This document shows, piece by piece, positions 3,173 to 40,020 of a stretch of 40,020 nucleotides of DNA (position 1 is its first letter; each line of letters begins with the position of its first letter). A program made the position numbers and the translations under genes. The notes beneath the pieces were generated by a model. That model made no database searches and was not told the DNA's origin. It was given only the letters and a program-made list of their open reading frames with translations. This stretch comes from a virus: the UHGV virus genome UHGV-0084069, one strand, 5' to 3'.

Positions 3173-3774
3173 TGACGCAGGCAAAATTAAACAGTGAGCT
3201 TATTGCCACGGAAGCCGGTGATATTACTGTGTTTAACTACGATGGTGAAACACGGGAGTATATTTCTGCATCAACTGAATATCTTGCTGTGGGTGTCGGT
3301 ATCCCTGCATATTCCTGTTTAGATGCTCCTGGCACCTACAAAGCTGGTTATGCAATCTGCCGTTCTGCAGATTTTAACTCATGGGAATATGTACCAGACC
3401 ATCGCGGTGAAATTGTCTTTAGCACCGAAACAGGAGAATCAAAAGAAATCACAGCTCCGGGTGATTACCCTGAAAATACAACCACTATCGCCCCGTTAAC
3501 GCCATACGATAAATGGGATGGTGAGAAATGGGTGACCGATACTGAGGCACAGCATAGCGCCGCAGTAGAAGCGGCAGAAGCACAGCGCCAGTCACTGATT
3601 GATGCAGCAATGGCTTCCATCAGTCTGATTCAGCTGAAATTGCAGGCCGCACGTAAACTGACGCAGGCAGAAACAACCAGACTTAACGCCGTGCTGGATT
3701 ACATTGACGCGGTGACGGCAACAGATACCAGCACCGCGCCGGATGTCATCTGGCCTGAACTGCCGGAGGCGTAG
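3172..3774 (+). CDS. tail fibre assembly protein (Tfa, P2 gpG / Mu U family)
   Basis: 200-aa ORF with ATG overlapping the fibre stop (TAATG); conserved Tfa C-terminus ...LDYIDAVTATDTSTAPDVIWPELPEA. Confidence 0.8.
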   Translation: MTQAKLNSELIATEAGDITVFNYDGETREYISASTEYLAVGVGIPAYSCLDAPGTYKAGYAICRSADFNSWEYVPDHRGEIVFSTETGESKEITAPGDYPENTTTIAPLTPYDKWDGEKWVTDTEAQHSAAVEAAEAQRQSLIDAAMASISLIQLKLQAARKLTQAETTRLNAVLDYIDAVTATDTSTAPDVIWPELPEA

Positions 3775-4198
3775 GCCATTCAATATCTGGCGCACTGGAG
3801 GTATCAACCAGTTCCAGTGCGTCCAGATAATCCAGCCACAAATTATATTGCGCCAGTTCATCATCTTTCAGACGACCAATAGCGGCTTTACCGGGCCATT
3901 GCTTACTGTTCATGTATTCGTTGGCCTGGTTAATTAGTAGCTGTCTTTCTGATTCAGTAATTTCAATAAGTTCTTCATGCGTGGGTGGAGGAATATCTGC
4001 CCACGCAGGCAGCCCATCATCTCCGGCAATACGGATTTTTCCTTGTGGCGGTTCAGCCATAAACTCACTGATAATATTTTGATTTACTTCCTTAGCGTCT
4101 GATAAATCCCATCCCTCTGATTTATATTTATCAATCATATCCACAGGGAAAAAAGCATTATGCCTTGCGCTATAAACATATTCGTTCATATAAATCAC
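3746..4198 (-). CDS. tail fibre assembly protein (second Tfa, convergent with the first)
   Basis: 150-aa ORF ending ...LDYLDALELVDTSSAPDIEWPTPPAVQAR; its 3' end overlaps the + strand tfa by 29 bp. Confidence 0.8.
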   Translation of the reverse strand: MIYMNEYVYSARHNAFFPVDMIDKYKSEGWDLSDAKEVNQNIISEFMAEPPQGKIRIAGDDGLPAWADIPPPTHEELIEITESERQLLINQANEYMNSKQWPGKAAIGRLKDDELAQYNLWLDYLDALELVDTSSAPDIEWPTPPAVQAR

Positions 4199-4209
4199 CC
4201 TGAATAAAA

Positions 4210-4872
4210 TTACTCACCAACAGCCCACCAACTGTAATTCATCGATACTGTGGAACTGGTTGATGCAGTTCTGTAAGCGGAATTAAAACCGGTTAATGTT
4301 GGGCCTTCTGCGGTCATCACGAATCCCCGCCCAGCACCTAAAGGCGCACCACCATCACCAGAATGAGTAAGCATGGCGCAGTCCACTTTTTTAGGAAAAG
4401 GGATGCTGAATGTAATTCTCATTGTTTGCGTCGATAATGTCGGCGTAACCGCACCACGACCATATTGCAGGATTTTCCCGTTGGGTAATTTCATCCATCC
4501 ATCACCATTGGCAAAAGAGGCCATGTCCGGTATCTGATTTTCCCCTGTCCCCACATCCCGTTTTGCCGCTTCTCCCAAACCAAGGTTTTCGAGAGCCGTT
4601 TTCACCGTGCCATCCGATTTGATATCGCCAAACGGATTCTTGCGGCTTAACAGCAGCGCACGAAGCGCGGTAAGCAACTGGTCGTGCCGCCCCTTCTCCA
4701 GGCTGGCACCGGATGCCTCCACCACGCTGCAGAGTTCTTCCTGCAACATATCAAAGTAGTCATCATCCAGATCGGTGGCAGGCGTGCCAGTCTGGGGGTT
4801 ACCACGGGTAAAACCGTTCTTACCCGCGCCGAACTTATCCTTCTGCGCGGTTTTCGTGTCTATACGATGCAT
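4210..4872 (-). CDS. short tail fibre protein (e14 StfP / Mu S-like): short constant N-terminus plus exchangeable C-terminal domain
   Basis: 220-aa ORF starting 4 nt after the gp48-like gene stop; LGLGE hinge at residues 97-101 coincides with the right crossover site. Confidence 0.75.
4570..4595. other. candidate 26-bp DNA-invertase crossover site (gix/hix/pix-like), right copy, inverted relative to 2688-2713
   Basis: TTCTCCCAAACC AA GGTTTTCGAGAG; resembles hixL TTCTTGAAAACCAAGGTTTTTGATAA (recalled); shares an 18-bp perfect inverted identity CTTCTCCCAAACCAAGGT with the left site. Confidence 0.6.
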
Positions 4873-4875
4873 GGA

Positions 4876-5460
4876 TTACTCCGGATATTTAAAAATTACG
4901 TAGGTATGCGACGGGCAGAGTTTGTTAAGCACACACTCGACAACGGTGTCACCCCAGATACGCAGTGCGGAATCACAGGGATCGCCACATGTCATCCAGG
5001 TGGTGTTGGTGGTGGTTGGCATGTTGACCTGCCAGTAATACCGCCATTCCGGCGCATTCACCGCGTCAGTACAGGCCGATGAGCCGGTGAAGGTGCTTTT
5101 GTCGTATCTCGTGATGGTGGCATCTGGCCTGCCCAGGGCAGCAAGCTGTGCAAGATAAAAATCCTCGTAGATGCCGCCCGCCAGGTTAACCTTCGCATCC
5201 AGCCGTTGCTGACGCTGGCGAAGGGGCTGCGTTCCCGCCGGAATACATTCATCCGGCAGACCGCACAGACGCTCCCAGCGGTTTATCAGTTCAGTGGTGG
5301 TGCGCGGATCCAGCTCCCGCATCAGGGCATCCGCACGCTGATGAACGCGGGTTAATGACGGTGCCGCACCGGCAATCGCCGGATCGCTGGCTGACCACGC
5401 CGGACCGGGTGGCAACAGTGCCGACAACAGACGGATGTAATCATCGTTTGTCACGTCCAT
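4876..5460 (-). CDS. tail protein, Mu gp48 / YmfQ-like (DUF2313 family)
   Basis: 194-aa ORF immediately upstream of the fibre gene; position matches Mu gp48 and e14 YmfQ. Confidence 0.65.
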
Positions 5461-6509
5461 GAAATCGTCCCCAGAACCGCCAGTTCATTTTTCGCAATGG
5501 AGATATTGTCTGCCGGTGCAAGCAACTGATGGCTATATTCCCCGTTCGCACCGGAAATCGCCTCACTGATACGCGATACCTTCAGTTCTCCCTGCGGATA
5601 ACCATCACGCAGAAGAAACGAACGCAACTCCGCGGTGATGGCGGCTCGTATTTCTGGTGTGTCCGGCGTCACGCGGATATGAAAATCCACCGTATGTGCC
5701 ACCGGCCTGAATACATACAAATCAGAGCCTGCCACCGGGGCCAGTGGCACGATATGTTGTCTTGCTGCCGTTTCCGTTGATTCTTCCGGAATGGGATTAA
5801 TCAGGTCACTGCTGGCAATCATCACACCGACAGTTCCCGTTCCCATCCAGTGACGGTATGTCCATGCGCGGGTAATGCCGGGCACTTCTTTAGCCCAGAC
5901 GACATAGTCCCCGTCAGCCCCGCCCTGAGGCGTCCAGTAATACCGCTCAATGACGCGGGCGCGCCACGTTTCCAGCTCTTCAGTATCAAATCCGCCTGTC
6001 AGGGTGTCAGCCACACCGGAAGACGGCAGACCATTCACCGGCGTGACCAGGATTAATGCCGTACCGTCGTCAGCGTTACCGACCGCACCTGCACTTGAGC
6101 AGGCGATCGGCACGCGCAGGACACCACCGGAGCTGGTTGCATCGGCAGTTGCCGTGTACTGAACCAGGTCATCGCGCTGAATAACACTCCCGGCGGTCAC
6201 CTTCAGGCCATCGCTGACACCTTCCCAGCGCATATACCCGCTGGCAGCCGTGGCCCCCTTGCGCGGACACCGTTTCATCGCAGCATGTCGCGCCAGCCAG
6301 AACTCATCGCACAGGTCAGGCAGCATGTTCATTGCCAGATAATCGATGTAACCGTAAACCGTATGCAGCGCCGCCGCATACACCTTTGCCCGCACGTCTT
6401 CATCCATGCGCCGGAGCGTGTCGCTGACGTCCAGCCTGGCGAATAAATCGTTACGGAGCATACTGATATTTTCTGCCAGCGTCGGGCGCTGAAATTCACT
6501 GTCCGCCAT
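5451..6509 (-). CDS. baseplate J-like protein (Mu gp47-like)
   Basis: 352-aa ORF in the Mu-type baseplate block, overlapping its neighbours. Confidence 0.7.
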
Positions 6510-6924
6510 GCGTTATCGCACTCCACAGATCATCAAAAGAAATCATTACCGGTCCGTCACGACGCCACAGAGTGATACTGTTACCCAGTTCATTAATCCC
6601 GGTGCGGCGGATATCCAGATCAATACGGGACACCACGCCGTCATCAATCATCCATTGCAGGCATTCGCGGATATACCCCCTTACCGTCTGCACCAGCTGA
6701 TTGGTCAGTTTGCTGCGCTGAAGCAGCCACAGTCGGGAGCCGTAACAGTCATTCTGTACCGCAGGCCAGGTATCCCCCCACCATCCCATCGGGACGTCGG
6801 CGTTGTCATCAGGCTCCGCCCGCCGCCAGGTAAACAGGGAAATCACCACGGCGCGGGTCAGCGGATCCAGCGGTGCGCTGGCGCAGGTGCGTTTACCGTT
6901 CACCGTCAGCCACAGTTCCATCAT
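6496..6924 (-). CDS. baseplate protein, Mu gp46 / GPW-gp25-like
   Basis: 142-aa ORF between the V-like and J-like genes. Confidence 0.6.
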   Translation of the reverse strand: MMELWLTVNGKRTCASAPLDPLTRAVVISLFTWRRAEPDDNADVPMGWWGDTWPAVQNDCYGSRLWLLQRSKLTNQLVQTVRGYIRECLQWMIDDGVVSRIDLDIRRTGINELGNSITLWRRDGPVMISFDDLWSAITHGGQ

Positions 6925-7469
6925 GCCTCCATCGCTTTATCAGGTTTGTCGGTGTTACTGCCATGACCGTTCTCTCTGTGACGATGCCCGTTATAGGCAA
7001 GCCGCATCGCTGACATGGTGGTACCGCCGGAGTCGCACAGGTCTTTCACCTGTCCGGTCACTTCCAGGTCCATTTCAAAACGTGCTCTGGGCGCATTGCG
7101 AAACGTGATCGTTTTACCTGCACCGTCCACCACGATCCCCTCCCGGGTCAGCGTCACAGACTGCCCCTGATCGTCATAGACAGCCACCTCACCCGTCTGC
7201 AGCCCTTTCAGGCGGTAGCGCCGGTCCGACACCGTAACAACCACCGCATGAGAACGGTCGCCATCCGGAAACAACACCACCGCTTCCGCACCGCTGTTTG
7301 CCCTTGCGGTAAAACCGTAGGGTTCAAGATGTTCAACCCCGGCTTTGGGTTCACCGGCAATCAGGGACACATCCACGGTCTGACATTTCGTGGCGGCACT
7401 GATGCTTTTCACCACTGCCCGCCCAATCAGGCCGAGAAGTTGTCGCTGCATGGCTTCAATCGTCCTCAT
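6921..7469 (-). CDS. baseplate assembly protein V / spike (Mu gp45-like)
   Basis: 182-aa ORF, position-conserved in the Mu tail module. Confidence 0.6.
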   Translation of the reverse strand: MRTIEAMQRQLLGLIGRAVVKSISAATKCQTVDVSLIAGEPKAGVEHLEPYGFTARANSGAEAVVLFPDGDRSHAVVVTVSDRRYRLKGLQTGEVAVYDDQGQSVTLTREGIVVDGAGKTITFRNAPRARFEMDLEVTGQVKDLCDSGGTTMSAMRLAYNGHRHRENGHGSNTDKPDKAMEA

Positions 7470-8548
7470 CAGAACGGGTCCTCCTGTACTCTGGCTTTTT
7501 TCTTTTTCCGCGCGCCGGGGGCTTCGGGTTCAGGCAGATAAGCATCAGGTGGGCCGACACGGATTTCCGTCAGGGTGCCATTCTGGTCCTGAGTAAACGT
7601 GACTTCCGAGACAAGCAGTTCGGTATTGTCGAAACCACAGACCGGATCGAAGACAATCACCCGCTGGTTGGGCTGCCACAGCGTACCGTTACCCTGTCGC
7701 CAGCCCTGCACCACATAGGTGGTTTCATCCGTCCGCGCCGCCCGTTGTCGGGCTTCAAAGTCAGCACGCGCAATACAGCCTGCCCCCGTAGCCTGCCCTG
7801 TCTGCCTGATATACATCGGACGGTAACGGGCAATAAATGCGTCCTCTGTGCGGGCCCGCAGCGCAGTTGTGGTGGCCTCACCGAAATCATCGTCGTTTCC
7901 GGCACGCTGCCCCGCCACCTGGTAAACAGAAAACCGCTCCCGGATACTCTTCTCCGTATCGCAGGAAAGGATGTTTTCCCCGAGTACCAGCGCGGTATGT
8001 GCCCGCGTTGAGCCAATACCGCCAATCACCAGCCTGCCGTGCGGGTCGTCATAAGCCAGCGCCTGCTGCTGACCGAGTATTTTGTTAATCACCTCGATCA
8101 CCGTTTCACCGTGATCAGGCTGGACATCAGGAATAACACCCGACGGCGCACCGCTGTTCACCACCTCAATGCCGAAGGGCGCAGCAAGCGCCTGCGCAAT
8201 CTGTACCAGTGATCGTCCGTTAAACTGTGTCGGTTCAGCTGCACAATCAATCAGGTCAGCGGTCAGACTGCGTCCGGCAATACCGGTGCTGACCGAACGG
8301 GCATCGTAACGAACGGGCGTCGCCTCCACCCAGCCGGTGATCACCAGCTCATCACCAATCAGCACCTCCACTTTTGAACCGTTTTTAATGCGCGGCTGAA
8401 GCGTGGTGATACCCTCATCACCCGGCCACTGGCGGGTGATCTCCACACTGAAATCCCGCGCCAGTCGTTCAACACCGGCACCGATGCGCACCGATGTCCA
8501 GCCATTCCACTCCCGGCCATTTACCCGTAGCGTGACATTGTCGTTCAT
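7469..8548 (-). CDS. baseplate hub protein (Mu gp44 / P-like)
   Basis: 359-aa ORF following the DNA-circularisation-like gene. Confidence 0.55.
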   Translation of the reverse strand: MNDNVTLRVNGREWNGWTSVRIGAGVERLARDFSVEITRQWPGDEGITTLQPRIKNGSKVEVLIGDELVITGWVEATPVRYDARSVSTGIAGRSLTADLIDCAAEPTQFNGRSLVQIAQALAAPFGIEVVNSGAPSGVIPDVQPDHGETVIEVINKILGQQQALAYDDPHGRLVIGGIGSTRAHTALVLGENILSCDTEKSIRERFSVYQVAGQRAGNDDDFGEATTTALRARTEDAFIARYRPMYIRQTGQATGAGCIARADFEARQRAARTDETTYVVQGWRQGNGTLWQPNQRVIVFDPVCGFDNTELLVSEVTFTQDQNGTLTEIRVGPPDAYLPEPEAPGARKKKKARVQEDPF

Positions 8549-9915
8549 TGCACTGGCACCTTCAGAGGGATCACCGGCACAAAGCCGGGATGCGTAATGG
8601 CATTACGCCGGATAATGTCCGCATCACGCGCCGCGTTATCAAACCAGGTCGCCGCCAGCACCAGCGCGGGTAAAACCTCATCCGGTGTGCGCTGAATGAT
8701 CCGTGCAGACTGTTCAAGGCGCGTGTTGATATCCGCATTCAGATCTGCTTTCACCCGGCGCAGTGCCAGAAACAGCGCATCACTGGTTGTACGGGACAAC
8801 TCCTTATCAATTGCCGTATTCAGTGTGTCGCGAATGTCAGTCAGTTCTTCCCACGTTGGCAGGTCAACCGTGTTTTTCACCGCCGGTGCATTGTTCAGTG
8901 CCGGATGCGTGACGGAAGGCCAGCCAGTGCTCTGCGCAGGTGTTGTTGACTGCCCCACTGCGGCATTCTGCATCACCGCGGAAGTTGTTGGCGCAGGCAA
9001 TCGGGTGACGGCATACGCCGCTTCGCTGATTGCGGTCGTACGAAGGGTACTGGCAACCTCGTTACGCTGATGCGTCGCCGTGGCGGTGGTTTTACTGTCC
9101 GTTTTCCAGACGCCGCGCGGTTGCAGATCGCTGCCGAGGCTGACACCGGAAAGCGTTTTGATCATGGTGACCAGGTCGCTGGCGTTACCATAAAGGCGTT
9201 TCCCGGTACGCCACATTTTCTGCACCTGCTCAACGAAATTTTTGCCTGACGATGGTGGCGGCAGAAGTACCGAGATATCCCCCTGCAACAGCCTGGCGGC
9301 ATCCGATACGGCAGAATCCACCACTTTCATCGCATCAGAAACATACCCAAGCATTGTGCTGGCATTACCGACGACGTCGTTCTGCACAAAATCTGCCACG
9401 CCATCGATACTGAAACCACTGAAGCTGTCACTGATGCAGTCATCCAGTGCAGAACAGGATGACATCAGCGTCTGCGCCGTCGCCGCACCTGAAGTGGGGT
9501 AAGAGAGTTCTCCCGCTTCGACAAACTTCAGGTCAAAGCGGACAATACGCCCTTCACTCTTCGATGTGCTGACCCGAACTTCCCCGTCAACACAGACTTT
9601 CAGCTCACCGTAAGTCGGATGGACAAGCGTGCCGGGACCGGGTTTATTCAGCGCGTCAATCAGGCGATCGCGCTGGTCAAAGCAGTCATCTCCCACCACA
9701 TAAGCTGTGATGGACGGGCGGAAAGTGATTTTCCCCAGGTCTTCGGTATAGGGTTTGTCGCGGTTCGGGTATTCGTGCGTTTCCACACGACGACCGGTTC
9801 CCGCACTTTCTTCTTCAACCTTAAACGGCACACCGCGAAATGACGCGTCCTGAAGTCTGTCTTTCCACGTCATATAAACTCCGTACATAAAAAATCCCAC
9901 CGGAGTGGGACTCAT
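8545..9915 (-). CDS. Mu gp43 (N)-like DNA circularisation / tail protein
   Basis: 456-aa ORF directly downstream of the tape measure gene. Confidence 0.55.
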   Translation of the reverse strand: MSPTPVGFFMYGVYMTWKDRLQDASFRGVPFKVEEESAGTGRRVETHEYPNRDKPYTEDLGKITFRPSITAYVVGDDCFDQRDRLIDALNKPGPGTLVHPTYGELKVCVDGEVRVSTSKSEGRIVRFDLKFVEAGELSYPTSGAATAQTLMSSCSALDDCISDSFSGFSIDGVADFVQNDVVGNASTMLGYVSDAMKVVDSAVSDAARLLQGDISVLLPPPSSGKNFVEQVQKMWRTGKRLYGNASDLVTMIKTLSGVSLGSDLQPRGVWKTDSKTTATATHQRNEVASTLRTTAISEAAYAVTRLPAPTTSAVMQNAAVGQSTTPAQSTGWPSVTHPALNNAPAVKNTVDLPTWEELTDIRDTLNTAIDKELSRTTSDALFLALRRVKADLNADINTRLEQSARIIQRTPDEVLPALVLAATWFDNAARDADIIRRNAITHPGFVPVIPLKVPVQ

Positions 9916-9933: not shown

Positions 9934-11769
9934 TTACCTGCCAAAGCGCGTATAGCCAACATCATGGCTGACATCAAAACCGCTGGATCGCGTTTCCATA
10001 ACCCGCATACCCGGAGGCGAATTCATAAAAGAGACCTTGATCTCACCATCAACTTTTGGCGCAGAAGCTTTGTTAATCATGAAGGGATTCGGGCCTGTGG
10101 CACCGGAGGCGTTGTTTGACTGAGCCGGATCTACCGCCGGATAAGGTGTGTATCCCCGCGCCGGTATTCCCGTCCCATAAGCATCATAAGCACCCGCGCC
10201 CCACTGCGCAGAGTTAATGGCATCGACCGTGTCACCGGAACTGTCGGTAAACCACTCAATAATTGGCTTCAGCTTGTCCCACATATCCTGAAACCACTTA
10301 ACAACCGGCCCCCAGTTATTGATCACCATCCCCAGCGGCGACCAGGCAAAAACTTTCTTAAGGAGTTCCCAGCCAGCCTCAAAATAAGGACCAATGGTTT
10401 CCCAGAGTTTCTTAAAATAAGGTCCGACAACATCCCAGTTAGTGATAATTAATCCCGCAGCCAGGGCTATCGCCGTCGCAATCATGCCAATCGGCGTCAT
10501 CGACATGATCCTGCTGACAATACTGATGGCACCGCCAACGCCCATCAATCCCAGTTTCAGAATCGCAAGACCGGCAGCAAGCCCGACGACGCCGCGAATA
10601 ACCCGGGGATTTTCATCCGCAAACTTCGTGAATTTTTCCCCCAACTCCCCCAGCCATTGCGTGATATTTTTAGCGTCACCAGAAAATGCGCCGCCAATAG
10701 CTGCAAGACCGTTAGTTGCGGTCCCCGTCATTGCCTCCCACAGGTTGGACAGCGTACCAAGCTGGGCCTGAACACGTTTATTCAGGCTGGCCTGTTTATT
10801 CATCTTCTGCTGGATCTGATCGTAGCCATCCTTTCCTTTATCGATCAGAGCATTGACCACCTGAAGGGTTTCGGCATCATCACCAAATATTGCCTTAAGT
10901 ACACCGGTTCGCTTAACGTCGGTCAGTTTTCGCAGCTTTGCCAGTTGCCTGAACATGTTATCAAGACCGCCAAAACTCCCTTTGCCATCAGTAAAATCGA
11001 GCTGTACCCCGAGTTTCTGGCGGGCCATGATTTTATTGACGTCCCTGATTTTCTTAACGCTTAATCCGGACTGGATAACTTTTCGCAGGGCATTACCTGC
11101 CGACTCCCCGTTCATCCCCATCTGATCCATCATGACACTGATGGGGGCAAGACTCTGTGCAGCCTGAAGACCGTCCTTATTCACCATCTTCAGAACAGAG
11201 CTGGTTTTAGTGAAGAATGACAGCATGTTGGTGTCGTCAACGCCCAGATAAAACGCCTTCTGAATTGTGTCGAACAGCCCCATCATGTCTTCTGAGGCCG
11301 TTCCGGTAGCATCCTGCATCTTTGCGGCAAACTCGGCAGCCGCTTCCGGTGTTTTTTTCAGTTGTACCGCAAGATAAGCTGTCGCTTTACCCACACCACC
11401 CAGAATGTTTTCTGCCGGGATCCCCTGACGCACCAGCATCTGCATCATGTTCTGGAAATCAGCCGTTGTACCGGGTAGCTGGTTACCCAGGCCAATAGCC
11501 AGTTTATTGATGTCCTGAAAGCTCTTTCCAACCTCGCCGTTCGCATCCATCATGGCGACTTTCAGCCCGGTAGCGGCGTTTTCCTGATCGGCATAAGATT
11601 TCAGGGAAAGCGTCAGCCCCGCTGCCAGTCCGCCACCAAGCGCCAGCCCACCCTGTGACGCCTCTTCCGCCTGGCGTTTAAATCCCCGGATTTTCTTTTG
11701 CATTTTCGACAGCGCGGGAGAAAGCCTGTCGACACCGGTGATCAACGCCTTAAGCTCAAATTCAGCCAT
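9934..11769 (-). CDS. tail tape measure protein
   Basis: 611-aa ORF with a Gly/Ala-rich hydrophobic central region and coiled-coil N-terminus; preceded by the chaperone frameshift pair. Confidence 0.75.
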   Translation of the reverse strand: MAEFELKALITGVDRLSPALSKMQKKIRGFKRQAEEASQGGLALGGGLAAGLTLSLKSYADQENAATGLKVAMMDANGEVGKSFQDINKLAIGLGNQLPGTTADFQNMMQMLVRQGIPAENILGGVGKATAYLAVQLKKTPEAAAEFAAKMQDATGTASEDMMGLFDTIQKAFYLGVDDTNMLSFFTKTSSVLKMVNKDGLQAAQSLAPISVMMDQMGMNGESAGNALRKVIQSGLSVKKIRDVNKIMARQKLGVQLDFTDGKGSFGGLDNMFRQLAKLRKLTDVKRTGVLKAIFGDDAETLQVVNALIDKGKDGYDQIQQKMNKQASLNKRVQAQLGTLSNLWEAMTGTATNGLAAIGGAFSGDAKNITQWLGELGEKFTKFADENPRVIRGVVGLAAGLAILKLGLMGVGGAISIVSRIMSMTPIGMIATAIALAAGLIITNWDVVGPYFKKLWETIGPYFEAGWELLKKVFAWSPLGMVINNWGPVVKWFQDMWDKLKPIIEWFTDSSGDTVDAINSAQWGAGAYDAYGTGIPARGYTPYPAVDPAQSNNASGATGPNPFMINKASAPKVDGEIKVSFMNSPPGMRVMETRSSGFDVSHDVGYTRFGR

Positions 11770-30896: not shown

Positions 30897-31598
30897 TCAT
30901 ACACTTGCTCCTTTCAGTCCGAACTTAGCTTTAATTTCTGCGATCTTCGCAAGAGCCTGTGCACGATTTAGAGGTCTACCGCCCATGACAGGAAGTTGTT
31001 TTACTGGTTCAGGTATAGCCTCACCACGGTTAATTCGCGCTGTCATACAGGTCAGTTCATCGGCAGCCTTGCGCCGTAATTCCGCGTCAGTCAGCGCATT
31101 GGCCCGCATGTTCTGGTACAAGTTGGTAACCAACCAGTAATGCGCGTTCGATTTCCACGGATAAGACTCCGCATCCGGATACAGGCCACGCTTCCGGCAA
31201 TACTCGTAAACCATATCAACCAGCTCGCTGACGTTTGGCAGCCCGGCGTTAACAGATGCTTCTTCCCGGCACCAGGCGACAAACTGCCCGGGTGATGGCA
31301 GGAATGGTCGATTCTGCCGACGGGCTACGCGCATTCCAGCGTTAACCTGTTCCATTGTGGTGATCCCGTTTTCCCGGAAAGCCAGAACCCACTGGCGGCG
31401 GATTTCGTTCAGTTCATTCTGGTCACGGTTAGCCAGGCTCGCCGGGAAAGTTGCCAGTAACTGGCTGAACACACCGTTGATGATCTGCGCTACCTGCTGT
31501 ACCTGTGGCTTTTCGTCGTACTGTTCCGGCATGTTGTTGGCGATCCGACGCATCTGCTCACGGTCAAAGTTAACCATCTGTGCGGCGATGTTTTTCAT
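30897..31598 (-). CDS. P: replication protein P (lambda P-like DnaB helicase loader)
   Basis: 233 aa, MKNIAAQMVNFDREQMRRIANNMPEQYDEKPQVQQ..., near-identical to recalled lambda P. Confidence 0.9.
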   Translation of the reverse strand: MKNIAAQMVNFDREQMRRIANNMPEQYDEKPQVQQVAQIINGVFSQLLATFPASLANRDQNELNEIRRQWVLAFRENGITTMEQVNAGMRVARRQNRPFLPSPGQFVAWCREEASVNAGLPNVSELVDMVYEYCRKRGLYPDAESYPWKSNAHYWLVTNLYQNMRANALTDAELRRKAADELTCMTARINRGEAIPEPVKQLPVMGGRPLNRAQALAKIAEIKAKFGLKGASV

Positions 31599-32614
31599 AA
31601 ATCCACCCCGTAAATCCAGTCAGTGTTTGTCAGGTCGAGTTTTGGTTTGCTGGCTATCATGCCTGCCTGTTGCTTGTTACGGTTGATTTCGAGCTGGGTC
31701 CACTTGTCGCGGAGTTTGGCCGGACTCAGCACGTTACCGGACCAGAAGTTGTCCTGGCATGCCCAGCGGAACAGTACACACATGTCGCGGTGGTTACGTC
31801 CGTCACGTTCACGCATCAGGCGGATATCGTTAGCCCACCCTGCAAAATTCGGTTTTCTGGCTGATGGCGCGATGGTCTTCACCATGTCAAACATCCACTC
31901 TGCGGCGGTCAGGTCTTCTGCTGTCCCCCACTTGCTGCCGCTCTGAATTGCAGCATCCGGTTTCACCACAGGAAGATCGTTTTCTGGCTGGTCAGAGGAT
32001 TCGCCAAAATTCTCGGACGAAAAAGGTTTTATATTGTCTTTTGTTAGTTTGTCTTTTGTGTTTACCTGATTCGGGTAAACGTCTTTACCTGATTTGGGTA
32101 AACTTTTCTTACCTGATTCAGGTAAATTTACCTCTTTCAGGTAAACTTTATTTTTCTTACCTGATTCGGGTAATGTTGACCATTCACTGACCACATTATT
32201 AATGCCGATATTCCGCCCGCTCTGAATAAAAATCCCACGCTTTACCAGAACACTTTTTGCAGCAGAACACTTGTGCGGCAATATCCCGGTCAACTCGGAA
32301 AGTTGCTCGTTGCTCACCCAATCCAGTTTTTTATTAAAGCCATATGTTTTGCGCATGACAGCCAGGAAGACCAGAAGCTGGTGCTGTGTTAATCCGGCCA
32401 GCATCACAGCTTCCAGCAACTCATTTGCAATGCGCGTATAACCATCATCGAGATCTGCCACGCGCGGCTCCTTTTGTGCCACATCCGGCACTGGAAAATT
32501 GAATATCTCAGCAGTGTTTGCCATAATTCCTCCCGCAATGAGTGTGTTACGGTTTGCACCTGAAAGTCGGTTCTGTTCCAGCAGACCGGCTTTCGCCATT
32601 TCTGAACCTGTCAT
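31595..32614 (-). CDS. O: replication initiator O (lambda O-like) containing the origin iterons
   Basis: 339 aa; N-terminal DNA-binding domain, internal LPESGKK repeats encoded by the iterons, C-terminal P-interaction region; upstream of P. Confidence 0.85.
   Translation of the reverse strand: MTGSEMAKAGLLEQNRLSGANRNTLIAGGIMANTAEIFNFPVPDVAQKEPRVADLDDGYTRIANELLEAVMLAGLTQHQLLVFLAVMRKTYGFNKKLDWVSNEQLSELTGILPHKCSAAKSVLVKRGIFIQSGRNIGINNVVSEWSTLPESGKKNKVYLKEVNLPESGKKSLPKSGKDVYPNQVNTKDKLTKDNIKPFSSENFGESSDQPENDLPVVKPDAAIQSGSKWGTAEDLTAAEWMFDMVKTIAPSARKPNFAGWANDIRLMRERDGRNHRDMCVLFRWACQDNFWSGNVLSPAKLRDKWTQLEINRNKQQAGMIASKPKLDLTNTDWIYGVDL
32062..32175. repeat. origin of replication: five 18-19 bp iterons (TTACCTGATTCGGGTAAAC-like) plus AT-rich stretch inside O
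   Basis: Copies start near 32062, 32085, 32109, 32128 (degenerate) and 32157; each is a partial palindrome TTACC...GGTAA. Confidence 0.75.
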
Positions 32615-33150
32615 ATCGCCCCCAGCATGGTAGTAACCATCGCCATCAATGGACCAGCCAGATCTGGGTCCACACGAAACATCGACACAATACCTTCACT
32701 AATTTCCTTCAGTTTCTGGTGGCGTGGTGCGTTGAGAATGACAGCCTGTTTTGCCTCACTGAGTTCCTTTTCCATTTCAGCCAACCTAGCCATGAAGCTA
32801 TCCTGCTCAACCAGGTAACCGCGATATTCCAGCGGTAGTACCGCCAGAATTGCCGGGGTCAGTTCACGCACGTTATTTCGGTATTTTTCAGAATCGAATT
32901 TGTTATCGAGGAAGCGGAACAGCTTCTGGCGTGCACGGCTGACATCATCAGGGAAATCGATGGTGCCGCCGCCCTGCTCCCGATACTCATTCACAATGAG
33001 TGTGGCAACGACATCCTGATTATCTACAGCCGACCAGGCGCGGACGGCATCACGGATCTTTTCGTGGCCTGGCACCTGTTTTGTTTGAGAACGATTTATC
33101 ACCGCAGTCGGGCTAAATCCGCTAGTCTGTTGGTATGTAAGTGGTTGCAT
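32611..33150 (-). CDS. CII-like regulatory protein candidate
   Basis: 179-aa ORF between cro-like and O, the lambda cII position; no motif verified. Confidence 0.4.
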   Translation of the reverse strand: MQPLTYQQTSGFSPTAVINRSQTKQVPGHEKIRDAVRAWSAVDNQDVVATLIVNEYREQGGGTIDFPDDVSRARQKLFRFLDNKFDSEKYRNNVRELTPAILAVLPLEYRGYLVEQDSFMARLAEMEKELSEAKQAVILNAPRHQKLKEISEGIVSMFRVDPDLAGPLMAMVTTMLGAI

Positions 33151-33219: not shown

Positions 33220-33450
33220 TTAAGCTGCGTTCTTTTCGGTGTGTGGAAACAACTTCGGAAGATCCGGGCGAATCTGGTATGCCTTCACTACTCCACCAGT
33301 AGCCGTAACAATGCTGCCGACATGTTCAGGGGATACCTTTGCTTTGTTGTGAAGCCACTTATAGATGGCCTGCTGTGAAACTTCGCAAGCAGCGCCCAGT
33401 TTCTTTTGTGAACCAACGATATTGATCGCTGTTTTGATAGCTGGGTTCAT
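33220..33450 (-). CDS. Cro-like HTH transcriptional regulator
   Basis: 76 aa with HTH ...QKKLGAACEVSQQAIYKWL...; divergent from the repressor gene; GGAGG RBS. Confidence 0.65.
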   Translation of the reverse strand: MNPAIKTAINIVGSQKKLGAACEVSQQAIYKWLHNKAKVSPEHVGSIVTATGGVVKAYQIRPDLPKLFPHTEKNAA

Positions 33451-34244: not shown

Positions 34245-34365
34245 TACCAATTAAAAATTATCAACTGGGCATTGTGCTCATTCAGTAAAGAACTAATTCC
34301 TATCTTTGCTCTAGGTAGTAATATTAAGCCACCGCAATAATATCTTTACCTAACGGCGTAAGAAT

Positions 34366-34391
34366 CCCGGTCACCGTGCCGGGTTTTCTTT
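34366..34391 (+). terminator. candidate intrinsic terminator after the repressor gene
   Basis: CCCGG-N8-CCGGG followed by TTTTCTTTT. Confidence 0.35.
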
Positions 34392-34520
34392 TGCCCCCCC
34401 CCTCATCACACACACCGTTAAAAAAACCACCATAACCTCGCTTCAGTTATCGCTATGCGATTCAAGTCACAAAATAAATCCATCCTAAATACAACCAGTT
34501 ATATCTAAAACAACCAATAA

Positions 34521-34565
34521 AACAACTTTTGTTGTTGACGATAAAACAACTGTAGTTTTAAATAA
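34521..34565 (+). promoter_or_regulatory. candidate pL-like promoter with overlapping operators (OL-like)
   Basis: Perfect palindrome AACAACTTTTGTTGTT overlapping -35 TTGACG (34535-40); 17-nt spacer; -10 TTAAAT; second element AAAACAACTGTAGTTTT. Confidence 0.4.
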
Positions 34566-34636
34566 GTTCATCGCAACAACACAACGATACGGCAACTACC
34601 TGATTCACCGTTGCGATGACCGCTTAGATCCGCAGT

Positions 34637-35047
34637 TTGAATTTCAGCAGGCTTCGGGGAGTGCGAGGGGTGAAACGGACGCGTGAACGTCGGTGTGACC
34701 AGCTGAAATTAACTCAACATTTCATACCTCAGTCGCTTCAACGAGGCGGCTTAGTTATGACAACCGGCGGCCATCCACCGCCTGAATACGCGCAGAAGTC
34801 TCTATATGTTCAGCAGCCCAGCTTACGGGCAGGAGTTTTTATGGTTCATCAACATTACGGAACGCAGACCGTTAATCGAGGTGCGGTCATGCCAGGAATG
34901 CTGGTCAAACACAAAGATGGTACCTGGACTGCATCAGCTAATTTACGCGGACGGCTATATCTGCATCGCGGCATCGAGCGCACTTATACCCGTGATTTGC
35001 TCGTGGAAGTTTTTCTCGACGGACGCGGTAACGGCCTGAATCACTAA
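34637..35047 (+). CDS. first gene of the early-left operon; Arg-rich N-terminus, possible N-like antiterminator
   Basis: ORF from TTG 34637; alternative GTG at 34673 preceded by GGAG would give an N-terminus MKRTRERRCDQLKL resembling the lambda N arginine-rich motif; an internal ATG (MTTGG...) is also possible. Confidence 0.4.
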   Translation: MNFSRLRGVRGVKRTRERRCDQLKLTQHFIPQSLQRGGLVMTTGGHPPPEYAQKSLYVQQPSLRAGVFMVHQHYGTQTVNRGAVMPGMLVKHKDGTWTASANLRGRLYLHRGIERTYTRDLLVEVFLDGRGNGLNH

Positions 35048-35123: not shown

Positions 35124-35420
35124 ATGAACGCTTATTACATTCAGGATCGTCTTGAGGCTCAGAGCTGGGCACGTCACTACCAGCAGATCGCCCGTGAAGA
35201 GAAAGAGGCAGAACTGGCAGACGACATGGAAAAAGGTCTTCCACAGCACCTGTTTGAATCACTCTGTATCGATCATTTGCAACGCTGCGGGGCCAGCAAA
35301 AAAGCCATTACCCGTGCGTTTGATGACGATGTTGAGTTTCAGGAGCGCATGGCAGAACACATCCGGTACATGGTTGAAACCATTGCTCACCACCAGTTTG
35401 ATATTGATTCAGAGGTATAA
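35124..35420 (+). CDS. gam: Gam (RecBCD inhibitor), 98-aa short form
   Basis: [54 protein letters not shown]..., near-identical to recalled lambda Gam. Confidence 0.85.
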
Positions 35421-35425: not shown

Positions 35426-36211
35426 ATGAGTACAGCACTCGCAACGCTGGCAGGGAAGCTGGCTGAACGTGTCGGCATGGATTCTGTCGACCCACAGGAA
35501 CTGATCACCACTCTTCGCCAGACGGCATTTAAAGGTGATGCCAGCGATGCGCAGTTCATCGCATTGTTGATCGTCGCCAACCAGTACGGCCTTAATCCGT
35601 GGACGAAAGAAATTTACGCCTTCCCTGATAAGCAGAACGGCATTGTTCCGGTGGTGGGCGTTGATGGCTGGTCCCGCATCATCAATGAAAACCAGCAGTT
35701 TGATGGCATGGACTTTGAGCAGGACAATGAATCCTGTACATGCCGGATTTACCGCAAGGACCGTAATCATCCGATCTGCGTTACCGAATGGATGGATGAA
35801 TGCCGCCGCGAACCATTCAAAACCCGCGAAGGCAGAGAAATCACGGGGCCGTGGCAGTCGCATCCCAAACGGATGTTACGGCATAAAGCCATGATTCAGT
35901 GTGCCCGTCTGGCCTTCGGATTTGCTGGTATCTATGACAAGGATGAAGCCGAGCGCATTGTCGAAAATACAGCATACACTGCAGAACGTCAGCCAGAACG
36001 CGACATCACTCCGGTTAACGATGAAACCATGCAGGAGATTAACACTCTGCTGATCGCCCTGGATAAAACATGGGATGACGACTTATTGCCGCTCTGTTCC
36101 CAGATATTTCGCCGCGACATTCGCGCATCGTCAGAACTGACACAGGCCGAAGCAGTGAAAGCTCTTGGATTCCTGAAACAGAAAGCCACTGAGCAGAAGG
36201 TGGCAGCATGA
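35426..36211 (+). CDS. bet: Bet (Red-beta single-strand annealing protein)
   Basis: 261 aa, [48 protein letters not shown]..., lambda Bet. Confidence 0.9.
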
Positions 36212-36888
36212 CACCGGACATTATCCTGCAGCGTACCGGGATCGACGTGAGAGCTGTCGAACAGGGGGATGATGCATGGCACAAATTACGGCTCGGCGTC
36301 ATCACCGCTTCAGAAGTTCACAACGTGATAGCAAAGCCCCGATCAGGAAAGAAGTGGCCTGACATGAAAATGTCCTACTTCCACACCCTGCTGGCTGAGG
36401 TTTGCACCGGTGTGGCTCCGGAAGTTAACGCTAAAGCGCTGGCCTGGGGAAAACAGTACGAGAACGACGCCAGAACCGTGTTTGAGTTCACTTCCGGCGT
36501 AAATGTTATTGAATCCCCGATCATCTATCGCGACGAAAGTATGCGCACCGCCTGCTCTCCCGATGGTTTATGCAGTGACGGCAATGGCCTTGAGCTGAAA
36601 TGCCCGTTTACCTCCCGGGATTTCATGAAGTTCCGGCTCGGTGGTTTCGAGGCCATAAAATCGGCTTACATGGCCCAGGTGCAGTACAGCATGTGGGTGA
36701 CACGAAAAGATGCCTGGTACTTTGCCAACTATGACCCGCGGATGAAGCGTGAAGGACTGCATTATGTCGTGATTGAGCGGAATGAAAAGTACATGGCGAA
36801 TTTTGACGAGATGGTGCCGGAGTTCATCGAAAAAATGGACGTGGCACTGGCTGAAATTGGTTTTGTATTTGGGGAGCAATGGCGATGA
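36208..36888 (+). CDS. exo: Exo (Red-alpha 5'-3' exonuclease)
   Basis: 226 aa, [40 protein letters not shown]..., lambda Exo; ATGA overlap with bet. Confidence 0.9.
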
Positions 36889-37043
36889 AGCATCCTCACG
36901 ATAATATCCGGGTAGGCGCGATCACTTTCGTCTACTCCGTTACAAAGCGAGGCTGGGTATTTCCCGGCCTTTCTGTTATCCGAAATCCGCTGAAAGCCCA
37001 GCGGCTGGCTGAGGAGATAAATAATAAACGGGAGAGTGTATGA
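36885..37043 (+). CDS. small translationally coupled ORF after exo
   Basis: ATGA overlaps at both ends (exo stop and next ATG); [52 protein letters not shown]. Confidence 0.4.
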
Positions 37044-37792
37044 TTCATTTTCACGGTGGTCCAATAACTCCCGATACCTGTGCGTTGAAAGCCTGGAAAG
37101 GCAGACACGCATTCATCAGTTTTGCTAATCCAGCTCAGATTGATCTGGCTTCCGAAGTCACCCAATCATTTGCTCTTGATAATGGTGCATTCACATTCTG
37201 GACAAAAAACAAGGCCATAGACTGGAATGAATATTACAGATTTGTTGAACGCTGGGGTAATCACCCTCGTTTCTCATTCGCGGTTATCCCGGATGTTATC
37301 GGCGGAACCAGTGAAGAGAATGACGCCCTGATTGCGGCATGGCCTCACGGTAAATTTATTGGTGCTCCGGTGTGGCACATGAACGAACCAGATGAGCGAT
37401 TTATTCGTCTGTGCCATGAGTTTCCCCGCGTCTGCATCGGCTCGATGGGGGAATACGATGCAAAACGACCGAGAGCGTGTCGGGCTAAACTACGCGATCT
37501 TATACGTCATGTTGTAGATCAGTACGGCTACCCAATCACCAAGATTCATGGGTTACGGATGTTAAATAAAGACATTTTTACTCATGTACCGCTTTCGTCT
37601 GCAGACAGCACGAACGTCGCAAGAAATATAGGCATCGACAAATCCTGGGTAGGTTCGCCATATGCTCCCGCAAGTAAAGAAACCCGTACGCAAGTTCTTG
37701 TGGAACGCATTGAATCATTCAACAGTGCCAGTTCACTTAATTACAACGCTGAACGGGACGTCTTTACCCCTCAACTGGCATTCGAAGTGTGA
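37040..37792 (+). CDS. hypothetical 250-aa protein (early-left cargo); function unknown
   Basis: [33 protein letters not shown]...; contains ...AVIPDVIGG..., loosely reminiscent of the DSGG motif of tRNA-guanine transglycosylase-like enzymes (weak). Confidence 0.6.
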   Translation: MIHFHGGPITPDTCALKAWKGRHAFISFANPAQIDLASEVTQSFALDNGAFTFWTKNKAIDWNEYYRFVERWGNHPRFSFAVIPDVIGGTSEENDALIAAWPHGKFIGAPVWHMNEPDERFIRLCHEFPRVCIGSMGEYDAKRPRACRAKLRDLIRHVVDQYGYPITKIHGLRMLNKDIFTHVPLSSADSTNVARNIGIDKSWVGSPYAPASKETRTQVLVERIESFNSASSLNYNAERDVFTPQLAFEV

Positions 37793-37799
37793 GGCCAAT

Positions 37800-38015: not shown

Positions 38016-38113
38016 ACATGAAAAGCAAAATCATCAGGGAGCTACAGGCTCCTTTTTTATTGTTCGCATTCATCCTCAAGCGTATTAACCAACAATTCAG
38101 GGATTAATGGAAG

Positions 38114-38332
38114 ATGGCAGACATCATTGATTCAGCATCAGAAATCGAAGAATTACAGCGCAATACAGCAATAAAAATGCGTCGTCTGAACTACCAGACT
38201 GTATCCGCAACTCATTGTTGTGAGTGTGGCGATCCGATAGATGAGCGAAGACGCCTGGCTGTTCAGGGTTGTCGGACTTGTGCAAGTTGCCAGGAGGAGA
38301 TCGAACTTAAGAACAAACAATGGGGACTGTGA
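38114..38332 (+). CDS. TraR/DksA-family C4 zinc-finger protein
   Basis: 72 aa with CCECGDPIDERRRLAVQGCRTCASC four-Cys motif. Confidence 0.65.
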   Translation: MADIIDSASEIEELQRNTAIKMRRLNYQTVSATHCCECGDPIDERRRLAVQGCRTCASCQEEIELKNKQWGL

Positions 38333-38379
38333 TGGCCTCAAAGCAGCAAATTTCAACATCGTCCAACTGAGGTGTAAAA

Positions 38380-38658
38380 ATGTTCAGAATCATTTTTCCT
38401 AACACCTGGTACGTCGACCACCACGGCACTCCCTGCAAAATCCTGCGTTCTACCCACAACAAAGTTCACTACATCCGAAAAGGCAGAACATGTATCGCCA
38501 GCATGTTCCGCTTTAATCATGACTTTGAACCTGTGAATAAAGCTGATGCAGATCGGATAGCAGAAGAGATCGAAACGGCAGAACACATTAAGAAGTTACG
38601 TGACATGCGTTCAAAAAGCAGAGGTAACCATGGAATCATACAGCCTCACACTCGATGA
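38380..38658 (+). CDS. hypothetical protein
   Basis: 92-aa ORF upstream of and overlapping the excisionase start. Confidence 0.45.
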   Translation: MFRIIFPNTWYVDHHGTPCKILRSTHNKVHYIRKGRTCIASMFRFNHDFEPVNKADADRIAEEIETAEHIKKLRDMRSKSRGNHGIIQPHTR

Positions 38659-38980
38659 GGCCTGTCAGTTTCTTAAGATATCCAGACCAACCGCCACCAA
38701 CTGGATACGAACAGGCCGCCTACAGGCAACACGTAAAGATCCAACCAAGCCAAAATCTCCTTACCTCACAACACGGCAAGCCTGCATTGCGGCGCTTCAG
38801 TCTCCGCTGCATACTGTCCAGGTGAGCGCGGGTGATGGCATAACAGAGGAAAGAAAATGTCACTCTTCCGCAGAGGTGAAATATGGTACGCCAGTTTCAC
38901 ATTGCCGAACGGTAAAAGATTTAAACAGTCTCTTGGAACAAAGGACAAAAGGCAGGCGACAGAACTCCATGACAAGCTAA
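38630..38980 (+). CDS. xis: excisionase / AlpA-family DNA-binding protein
   Basis: [36 protein letters not shown]; GAGG RBS; immediately upstream of and overlapping int by about 124 nt, so the true 3' end is uncertain. Confidence 0.55.
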
Positions 38981-40020
38981 AGGCTGAAGCATGGCGGGTC
39001 AGCAAACTTGGTGAAATACCTGATATAACGTTCGAGGAAGCGTGTGTCAGGTGGCTTGAAGAGAAAGCACATAAAAAATCACTGGACGATGACAAAAGCC
39101 GGATCGGATTCTGGCTTCAACATTTCGCAGGAATGCAACTAAGAGACATTACTGAATCAAAAATTTATTCAGCAATGCAGAAAATGACGAACCGGCGTCA
39201 TGAGGAAAACTGGAAACTCAGGGCAGAAGCATGCAGAAAAAAAGGGAAACCTGTTCCAGAATACACGCCAAAACCAGCGTCCGTTGCAACGAAGGCTACG
39301 CATCTTTCATTTATAAAGGCCCTACTAAGAGCCGCAGAGCGTGAATGGAAAATGCTGGATAAGGCACCAATTATTAAAGTGCCTCAACCAAAGAATAAAC
39401 GGATCCGCTGGCTGGAGCCCCATGAAGCACAAAGGCTGATTGATGAATGTCCGGAGCCATTAAAGTCTGTTGTTGAATTTGCACTGGCAACAGGCTTAAG
39501 ACGCTCGAACATCATCAACCTTGAATGGCAACAAATAGATATGCAGCGCCGGGTGGCATGGATAAACCCGGAAGAGAGTAAATCAAACCGCGCAATTGGC
39601 GTTGCGCTGAATGATACTGCATGTCGCGTATTGAAAAAACAAATCGGGAATCATCACCGTTGGGTATTTGTGTACAAGGAAAGCTGTACCAAACCAGACG
39701 GAACGAAAGCGCCAACAGTAAGGAAGATGCGGTATGACGCAAACACAGCCTGGAAAGCGGCGCTGAGACGGGCTGGTATTGATGATTTCAGATTTCACGA
39801 CTTGAGACACACCTGGGCAAGTTGGCTGGTTCAAGCCGGAGTCCCGTTGTCAGTTTTACAGGAAATGGGAGGCTGGGAGTCTATCGAAATGGTTCGTCGA
39901 TATGCTCACCTTGCACCTAATCACCTTACCGAACACGCACGGCAAATAGACTCGATCCTGAACCCATCGATCCCAAATTTGTCCCAGTCAAAAAATAAGG
40001 AAGGTACTAATGATGTGTAA
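38857..40020 (+). CDS. int: tyrosine integrase (IntD / phage 21 family)
   Basis: 387 aa, [48 protein letters not shown]...; C-terminal catalytic region [17 protein letters not shown]...VRRYAHL; stop is the last 3 nt of the window. Confidence 0.9.

Follow-up and report, generated by a model that had tools for sequence, protein, structure and literature searches.

The 40,020-nucleotide (nt) sequence analyzed here (UHGV virus genome UHGV-0084069, hereafter the window) corresponds to the initial 40,020 bp of a metagenome contig of 46,268 bp, ena:ERZ772937:NODE_277, a SPAdes-style node with a coverage tag of 6.64 that was identified by exact-protein look-ups. As assembled, it joins parts of two types of prophage at a 1.9-kb invertible tail fiber segment. 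The left end is P2-like, with plus-strand genes and a G+C content of 0.54-0.58 over 1-3 kb. The remainder, from ~4.6 to 40.0 kb, is almost certainly a lambdoid myovirus prophage of the SfV/SfII/e14 family, with a minus-strand late operon at ~4-22 kb (G+C 0.49-0.59) and a patchier early region at ~22-40 kb (G+C 0.32-0.55, with a marked low-G+C island at 28-31 kb). ARAGORN found no tRNA genes in the window, and an Rfam scan of it gave zero matches.

Positions 1-1655 hold three plus-strand genes of a P2-like baseplate block: the 3′ end of W (1-162), J (149-1057, Pfam Baseplate_J) and I (1050-1655, Pfam Tail_P2_I). Their products share 97-99% amino acid (aa) identity with those of the UMNK88 and FDAARGOS_1287 P2-like prophages, and the block belongs to a second phage type rather than to the lambdoid element. 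Next on the same strand is the P2-like tail fiber gene H (1652-3172, 506 aa, Pfam Phage_tail_fib and Collar), whose constant part (1652 to ~2701) continues across a left crossover site into the variable cassette (2702-3172) that encodes the C-terminus; a 506-aa H with 97% identity is present in a normal P2-like prophage, L047 (GCA_050540925.1). The tail fiber assembly gene for the H-linked cassette follows on the plus strand (3172-3774, 200 aa, Pfam Caudo_TAP), with 90-93% identity to homologues in P2-like and SfV-like prophages. Converging on it from the minus strand are a short tail fiber gene of the SfV/e14 type, similar to StfP and gp53 (4210-4872, 220 aa, Pfam Gp53-like_C), and the assembly gene for its cassette (3746-4198, 147-150 aa, Pfam Caudo_TAP), which is 97-98% identical in P2-like (UMNK88) and SfV-like (UID2309220003) contexts. 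The constant N-terminal part of this fiber (4872 to ~4582) reads across a right crossover site into its own variable cassette (4581-4210). The protein is 98% identical to the UID2309220003 fiber and 62% identical to SfV orf21, and an exact copy that spans the right site is present in a second metagenome (L004).

The two crossover sites, at 2689-2714 and 4569-4594, are the arms of a 26-nt inverted repeat that is 92% complementary, with 1854 nt between the arms. The left site is of the P2 fiber-side type and is the same as the H-side site of the UMNK88 and MS 57-2 P2-like prophages. The right site, CTTCTCCCAAACCAAGGTTTTCGAGA, is of the SfV/e14 fiber-side type and is the same as the fiber-side sites of e14 (K-12), SfV, UID2309220003 and PSS-16. 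Invertase-side sites have a different outer half, …AACGTTTAAGAAA or …AACGTTTATGAAA. Both sites in the window share the core AAACC-NN-GGTTT with e14 pix and Mu gix, and the e14 P-segment inversion site has been published with the same TTGGTTTGGGAGAAGG repeat, with PinQ, PinR and PinE acting in trans (PMC12529663). Enclosed by the sites are two convergent cassettes, each a variable fiber tip with its chaperone (2702-3774 on the plus strand, 4581-3746 on the minus strand). This layout resembles the Mu G, P1 C and e14 P segments of the Din family (Gin, Cin, Pin, Hin), which likewise have imperfect inverted 26-bp sites with this core, placed inside fiber coding sequence, opposed fiber-tip and chaperone cassettes, and a constant fiber N-terminus that reads in from outside. 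In contrast to those systems, constant fiber parts from two phages flank both sides of the segment, and the adjacent invertase with its enhancer is missing: tblastn of PinE, Gin and P2-type Pin over the whole window returned only noise (E ≥ 0.47). Inversion would therefore need an invertase supplied in trans. Both orientations of the segment occur among relatives (UID2309220003 and pCE-O153H30-A versus PSS-16), so that it is a working inversion module in this phage group.

The arrangement around the segment is not that of either phage type. The normal P2-like order is H-segment-pin-FI, and the normal SfV-like order is fiber-segment-pinE-cargo-attR; e14 has stfP-segment-pinE-mcrA-attR, and the circular pCE-O153H30-A (44.8 kb) closes as int-attP-Avs2-pinE-segment-fiber. 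The last of these, a circular record of 44,831 bp deposited as a plasmid (NZ_CP172337.1), is a complete genome of this phage type. It is probably not a plasmid but a phage that has been excised or is replicating, and its sequence opens within a few bases of a crossover site. In the window, P2-like homology runs along the plus strand from 1 to 4583-4588, through W′, J, I, H, its assembly gene, the convergent assembly gene and a C-terminal fragment of the fiber, and SfV-like homology runs rightwards from 2697-2712 or 4568-4575. The overlap of the two is bounded by the 26-nt inverted repeat. Among P2-like prophages with an invertible H/G locus (UMNK88, MS 57-2, GCA_050540925.1) there is one collinear and ungapped with 1-4583 at 96.5% identity, a stretch that covers W, J, I, H, tfa, tfa′ and Sv′. 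There, the segment leads to the invertase and the FI sheath gene, whereas in the window it leads to an opposite-strand SfV-like fiber and baseplate. Compared with the SfV group, likewise, the fiber of the window leads through the invertible segment to P2-like genes. Both outer half-sites are of the fiber-side types and both flanks are constant fiber parts, so that both cassettes are fused in frame to a fiber gene simultaneously, one per phage, and the 506-aa H and the 220-aa SfV-type fiber are both complete open reading frames (ORFs) that read into the segment.

Sequence identity changes abruptly at the crossover sites. The MS 57-2 P2-like prophage shares 99.8% DNA identity with the window over 200-2713 and is unrelated right after the site (2714), and L047 is 91-96% identical in the constant part of H and 99-100% identical just inside the segment (boundaries at 2714 and 2800). 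These shifts indicate that the segment is passed between P2-like and SfV-like phages as a cassette bordered by the crossover sites, a pattern that fits either trans-acting Pin-family invertases or recombination anchored at the conserved sites. A preliminary description of this DNA had placed the start of a self-contained prophage at 3746. That position is the end of the 3746-4198 ORF, where the two convergent assembly genes overlap inside the invertible segment, and what lies to its left is P2-like baseplate and fiber genes, not host DNA or an attachment site.

Assignment of the rest of the window to the SfV/SfII/e14 family rests on its late-region DNA identity, on per-protein identities, on Pfam and NCBIfam tests (the latter judged against curated cut-offs) and on the gene order and crossover site shared with e14. 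Using megablast against phage genomes, 4518-21848 aligned in one piece to Shigella phage SfII at 98.0%, and SfI, SfIV, SfV and E. coli phage vB_EcoM-689R6 share 97-98% DNA identity with the late region, from the constant part of the fiber to terS. Between 22 and 40 kb, several pieces align at 95-98% to a set of E. coli lambdoid phages. The ORF map and homology together give a contiguous lambda-like gene order, int-xis-exo-bet-gam-kil, then cI, then cro-like, cII-like, O, P, nin genes and Q, which is completed by S-R-Rz, HNH-terS-terL-portal-protease-capsid, the neck genes and sheath-tube-tape measure-baseplate-fiber. Each structural ORF could be aligned over its full length to an intact relative by tblastn, and the protein comparisons revealed no insertion sequence (IS) element or frameshift in the structural ORFs. 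The comparison with SfV and its relatives that had been proposed as a check upholds the earlier view of a lambdoid myovirus with SfV-like organization, and in a more literal sense than was first meant.

The SfV group and the window element share lambdoid early genes, an HK97-type head and a Mu-type tail, and the integrase and excisionase of the window are 98% and 97% identical to those of SfV. The label SfV-like fits the tail, where proteins from the head closure and tail completion genes to gp48 are 94-100% identical to SfV orf7-orf20 by tblastn (the protein-by-protein references were lambda, SfV, DLP12, Mu and P22). It does not fit the head, for which SfV has a different gene set: capsid and portal share no more than 25-27% identity with their SfV counterparts and the protease has no match, whereas the head genes are 98% identical to SfII at the DNA level. 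These comparisons assign portal, protease and capsid to the SfII/SfI/SfIV type. Also unlike SfV, the early and lysis regions of the window are of the lambda/DLP12 type. The gtr O-antigen modification genes were not found, as SfV GtrA, GtrB and GtrV gave nothing in tblastn against the window; the region where they would be expected, between the fiber genes and attP, lies outside it, and E. coli relatives carry Avs2 or mcrA in place of gtrA/gtrB/gtr(type). e14 of K-12 shows the same distal order (ymfR, a portal remnant, jayE (gp47), ymfQ (gp48), stfP, tfaP/tfaE, stfE′, pinE, cargo, attR), but e14 is a remnant of 15 kb, integrated in icd and carrying another integrase, whereas the window element retains all head and tail genes and is without pinE. 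Whether or not the joint with the P2-like block is real, the element combines known modules in a new mosaic and does not amount to a novel kind of element. Lambdoid myoviruses of the SfV/e14 type are found widely in E. coli and Shigella, each module in the window has relatives with 90-100% identity, and as a prophage the element is routine.

The early region ends with the excisionase gene (38630-38980, plus strand, 97% identical to SfV Xis) and a gene for a 387-aa tyrosine integrase of the SfV/P22 type (38857-40020, plus strand), and the window ends at the int stop codon. The integrase is 98.2% identical to SfV Int, 89.7% to P22 Int, 73% to DLP12 IntD, 27% to the icd-site integrase of the phage-21/e14 kind and 22% to lambda Int. 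The identical protein occurs on 24 contigs that represent 9 distinct contexts, and wherever downstream DNA is present it is followed by proA, proB, phoE, crl, frsA and gpt. In L006 the tRNA-Thr(CGU) gene lies 15 bp past the int stop codon, and strain G1/2 is the same according to its PGAP annotation. Given the type of the integrase and the position of its identical copies beside thrW-proA, the expected attachment site is thrW, the threonine tRNA gene used by SfV-group and P22 phages. A phage-21 or IntD-type integrase with an arginine tRNA as its target, as first proposed, does not agree with these data; the IntD (argU) and phage-21/e14 (icd) types are ruled out by the low identities and by the identical copies at thrW. 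In practical terms the analysis corrects three points: the expected attachment site is thrW and not an arginine tRNA gene, the left 'end' at 3746 is no prophage end, and inducibility does not follow from this contig.

The joint between the two phage types proved to be very rare. We searched 5,426 closed E. coli genomes with a contiguous query and with a split query that omits the segment, and a P2-like H and an SfV-like fiber converging on one segment were found in a single genome, FDAARGOS_1287. At ~83.2-132.3 kb of NZ_CP070071.1, this genome has P2-like int…J-I-H reading into the segment, followed on the opposite strand by the fiber and the rest of an SfV-like prophage through to int. The reciprocal joint lies ~47 kb away, where ogr…FI is followed by pin, the segment and pinE, with pin and pinE pointing outwards, and both outer half-sites are of the invertase-side types. 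In FDAARGOS_1287, two tandem prophages near ssrA thus have a ~47-kb inversion between their invertible loci. With both reciprocal joints present in a closed genome, the architecture seen in the window is biologically attainable. The two cases share the convergent joint and differ in that both reciprocal joints are visible in FDAARGOS_1287, that its SfV-like fiber is broken (an stfP pseudogene) where that of the window is intact, and that its early region and integrase are others.

Our preferred reading, to which we give an even chance, is that the joint in the window arose when two co-resident prophages recombined at their invertible loci. In its favor are the extents of P2-like and SfV-like homology, the two fiber-side outer half-sites, the missing invertase gene, the way in which the normal genome of this phage type closes, and the matching joint with its reciprocal in FDAARGOS_1287. 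The literature reports cross-talk of invertases between prophages and also fiber 'translocation' between prophages, and inversion between prophages at these sites is not described in the literature that we found in a search that was not exhaustive. Several points weigh against a recombination product. The window comes from a low-coverage metagenome contig (~6.6x). Most 200-bp intervals of its segment are 99-100% identical to the segment of the normal P2-like prophage L047, and 4201-4800 is 100% identical to the SfV-like context L004 from another metagenome; had both prophages in the sample contained near-identical segments, the assembly could have crossed from one prophage into the other. The prior for a real event is low, considering the one case among 5,426 closed genomes, and the reciprocal joint, the remaining P2-like prophage and the last 6.2 kb of the contig lie outside the data examined. 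In addition, Gin/Hin-family invertases normally need closely spaced inverted sites and a nearby enhancer, and a long-range exchange between prophages is unexpected for them. Segments that match it at 99-100% occur in P2-like as well as in SfV-like relatives, and for that reason neither the parentage of the segment nor the type of exchange, site-specific or homologous, can be told from sequence.

The leading alternative, which we rate at somewhat less than an even chance, is that the joint was made during assembly. Under this explanation, a normal SfV-like and a normal P2-like prophage, from one strain or two, had near-identical segments that were collapsed, with one flank of each joined to the result. 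In addition to the coverage of the node, the identity of the segment to those of both phage types in other genomes and the rarity of the joint, this alternative draws support from the fact that the contig ends only 2.7 kb into the P2-like side, and invertible fiber segments are a documented source of spurious contigs (PMC4134206). On the other hand, a collapsed segment with four possible flanks per end would, judging from assembler behavior, normally end the contig, and FDAARGOS_1287 has the same architecture together with its reciprocal joint. That both fiber ORFs stay in frame across the sites is no guide, since it would be true of a chimera as well.

We consider it improbable that the joint is real but arose by another route, either deletion between directly oriented sites of neighboring prophages, which would remove pin…pinE and everything between them, or an invertase-mediated cointegrate of a circular lambdoid phage, in which int would be followed by attP, cargo and pinE rather than by thrW. 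Circular copies of this phage type do exist, the 44.8-kb pCE-O153H30-A being one, and its distance from the int stop codon to the pinE-side site, 5.9 kb, is near the 6.2 kb of contig beyond the window. However, wherever the identical integrase has downstream DNA it adjoins thrW-proA and never attP-cargo-pinE, Gin/Hin-family invertases disfavor deletion and intermolecular fusion, and neither route has direct support. Least tenable, and in our view very improbable, is a self-contained prophage from 3746 to 40020 or beyond, complete from int to fiber, with a phage-21/IntD-type integrase at an arginine tRNA; in its favor, the genes are ordered and the ORFs intact as had been described, IntD has the same length of 387 aa and is a homologue at 73%, and the same early-left module occurs with IntD-type integrases at argU/fimZ in other genomes, but the integrase matches SfV Int with identical copies flanking thrW, its identity to the icd-site integrase is low, and 3746 lies inside the invertible segment with P2-like genes to its left.

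If the joint is a recombination product of two prophages, the invertible loci of the co-resident elements would have exchanged either through catalysis by an invertase at the sites or through RecA-dependent recombination in the near-identical segments, an event of the same kind as the ~47-kb inversion in FDAARGOS_1287. In the rearranged state the lambdoid prophage would be cut off from pinE, cargo and attR, and Int and Xis alone could not excise a unit genome until the rearrangement was reversed. The remainder of the life cycle can be proposed from homology. Lysogeny would be maintained by a LexA-like cI repressor, and its cleavage in the SOS response would allow expression of the cro/cII-like, O/P and Red genes. 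A QuuD-type Q antiterminator would then turn on the single long minus-strand late operon, which is predicted to supply a phage-21-type pinholin, a signal-arrest-release (SAR) endolysin, Rz/Rz1, HNH-assisted P27-type packaging, an HK97-type head and a Mu-type tail. The SfV/P22-type Int and Xis would integrate and excise the genome at thrW, and a serine invertase of the Pin/Gin family could switch host range by flipping the 1.9-kb segment between its 26-bp sites.

It had also been suggested that the element is gene-complete from int to fiber and so may be inducible. The integrity of its ORFs bears out the first part of this, but pinE, cargo and attR, which complete this phage type in circular and chromosomal copies, are missing from the window. 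As the sequence stands, inducibility does not follow, because of the joint with a convergent P2-like block, the missing pinE, cargo and attR, and the low-coverage metagenome origin of the contig. A physical joint would mean that attL (at thrW) and attR no longer have the arrangement needed by Int and Xis, and induction would yield no unit genome unless the rearrangement reverted. If the joint is an artifact of assembly, the prophage would be complete, to all appearances an intact and ordinary representative of its family, and inducibility would be plausible, as had been suggested.

A more specific idea, which we consider unlikely, is that of a physical joint produced by a Pin-family invertase that acted on the crossover sites of two different resident prophages. 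Were it true, the P2-like and SfV/e14-like invertible fiber loci would form one recombination network that swaps receptor-binding cassettes between unrelated phage families, a reading that mosaic boundaries lying exactly at the crossover sites would fit. Such a joint could reversibly split and 'lock' both prophages while both fiber variants are expressed. More generally, the junction shows the 26-bp crossover sites to be the points at which receptor-binding cassettes are exchanged between P2-like phages and lambdoid myoviruses, and at least one closed genome has had entire prophages rearranged relative to one another at such sites. The junction also carries a warning, as invertible fiber segments can yield misleading metagenome contigs.

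The tail genes of the lambdoid element, all on the minus strand, begin next to the fiber. They encode gp48/YmfQ (4876-5460, Pfam Phage_Mu_Gp48), gp47/J (5451-6509, Pfam Baseplate_J), gp46 (6496-6924, Pfam GP46), gp45/V (6921-7469, Pfam Phage_Mu_Gp45), a P-like hub protein (7469-8548, Pfam GpP-like) and an N-like 'DNA circularization' protein (8545-9915, Pfam DNA_circ_N), which are 97-99% identical to SfV orf15-20. Beyond these are genes for the tape measure protein (9934-11769, Pfam PhageMin_Tail), a tail assembly chaperone (11911-12180, Pfam Phage_TAC_7), the tube (12180-12536, Pfam Tail_tube), the sheath (12536-14032, Pfam Phage_sheath_1) and a DUF2635 protein similar to Mu gp38 (14016-14186, Pfam DUF2635), with 98-100% identity to SfV orf11-14. 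The contractile tail module follows the order of Mu (gp38-like, sheath, tube, chaperone, tape measure, N, P, gp45-48, fiber), and tblastn identities to Mu proteins are 36% for the sheath (L), 26% for N, 35% for P, 30% for gp45, 45% for gp46, 30% for gp47 and 29% for gp48; direct tblastn of the tube and tape measure proteins to Mu gave no match. The Mu-type sheath and baseplate of the preliminary description are therefore confirmed by these identities, of 26-45%, and by the Pfam families, and the homology search produced nothing to refute them.

The neck genes, also on the minus strand, encode a tail terminator (14195-14755, Pfam Phage_tail_terminator), a 168-aa protein (14752-15258), a head closure protein (15233-15643, Pfam Phage_HCP), a head-tail connector (15640-15963, Pfam Phage_connect_1) and a 66-aa protein (15966-16166). 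These have full-length matches in UID2309220003 and FDAARGOS_1287. The head and packaging genes continue on this strand with the major capsid protein (16216-17421, Pfam Phage_capsid, NCBIfam TIGR01554 major_cap_HK97), the prohead protease (17436-18122, Pfam Peptidase_S78, TIGR01543 proheadase_HK97), the portal (18064-19305, Pfam Phage_portal, TIGR01537 portal_HK97), YmfR (19305-19487), the large terminase (19499-21232, Pfam TerL_ATPase and TerL_nuclease), a P27-family small terminase (21229-21723, Pfam Terminase_4, TIGR01558 sm_term_P27) and an HNH endonuclease (21849-22199, Pfam HNH). With all four NCBIfam models above cut-off and a Pfam match for HNH, the combination of an HK97-type head, a P27-type small terminase and HNH is present as had been described.

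Upstream of the packaging genes are a plus-strand gene for a bor/iss-like lipoprotein (22725-23018, 89% identical to DLP12 BorD, Pfam Lambda_Bor) and a minus-strand lysis cassette. The cassette consists of Rz (23050-23523, 98% identical to lambda and 93% to DLP12), Rz1 (23109-23291), a SAR-type endolysin (23508-24005, 99% identical to DLP12 RrrD, Pfam Phage_lysozyme) and a phage-21-type holin (24005-24220, 100% identical to DLP12 EssD), which matches Pfam Phage_holin_2_1, 'Bacteriophage P21 holin S', at E = 2e-35. The earlier call of a phage-21-type lysis cassette holds, with an S21-family pinholin and a SAR endolysin recognized through Pfam and the comparison with DLP12 rather than with phage 21 itself. 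Between the holin gene and Q lies a plus-strand gene for an NmpC/OmpD-like porin (24792-25874, 91% identical to NmpC of DLP12). This gene, which like the lipoprotein gene is a moron of the lysis region, is intact, whereas the 91%-identical nmpC of K-12 is broken by IS5.

The gene for the QuuD-type Q antiterminator (26063-26446, minus strand, Pfam Phage_antitermQ, 98% identical to QuuD) is followed by a minus-strand nin region with rusA (26669-27031), ybcN (27481-27936) and, within 26063-28997, ylcG, ybcO, ninE and small ORFs. The genes of 26063-28997 are 94-99% identical to their DLP12 homologues, and their order is collinear with that of locus L037. Directly downstream of P, where lambda has ren, is a pair of low-G+C (0.32-0.35) minus-strand cargo genes that encode proteins of 168 aa (30032-30538) and then 261 aa (29240-30025) and are conserved together in related prophages. 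No PADLOC or PHROGs family was found for the pair, and Pfam gave only a sub-threshold match to MCRA. A homologue search with the 261-aa protein returned 6 clusters, none of them named, and its single-sequence AlphaFold model is all-helical and of low confidence, with a predicted local distance difference test (pLDDT) score of 60. The pair may represent a moron or a candidate defense system.

For the replication, immunity and early-left genes, Pfam families were assigned through identical proteins. On the minus strand are P (30897-31598, Pfam Phage_lambda_P), O (31595-32614, 67% identical to lambda, Pfam Phage_rep_O), a cII-like/YdaT gene (32611-33150, Pfam YdaT, PHROGs cII-like) and a cro-like/YdaS gene (33220-33450, Pfam YdaS), and on the plus strand is the gene for an S24-peptidase cI repressor that starts at 33489 or 33554 and ends at 34244 (Pfam Peptidase_S24, PHROGs repressor). 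The early-left genes, all on the plus strand, are kilR (34841-35047, PHROGs Kil), gam (35124-35420), bet (35426-36211), exo (36208-36888), a DUF1317 gene, a gene for a 250-aa protein without a Pfam family (37040-37792), a gene for a 71-aa protein, a TraR-like gene (38114-38332) and a DUF4222 gene (38380-38658). The Red and P proteins had been called identical to those of lambda, which is exact for Bet (100%) and close for Exo (97%), Gam (96%) and P (98%).

A scan for promoters and terminators and a reading of the spacer between cI and kilR (34245-34840) found no N-like antiterminator there. The spacer contains a terminator-like hairpin at 34366-34383 and AAAACAAC-type repeats at ~34490-34560, which may be pL operators, and the cargo that relatives carry at this spot varies, with Panacea-domain, SIR2, HipA-like and DUF6414 genes. 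The 250-aa early-left protein is very widespread, its exact sequence occurring in 2,604 indexed blocks, and its match in PHROGs is to the N-terminal half of PHROG 887, a family with the annotation queuine tRNA-ribosyltransferase. The early-left module as a whole was seen with at least five combinations of integrase and attachment site: lambda-type, argU, thrW, icd and one by an MlrA-like regulator gene.

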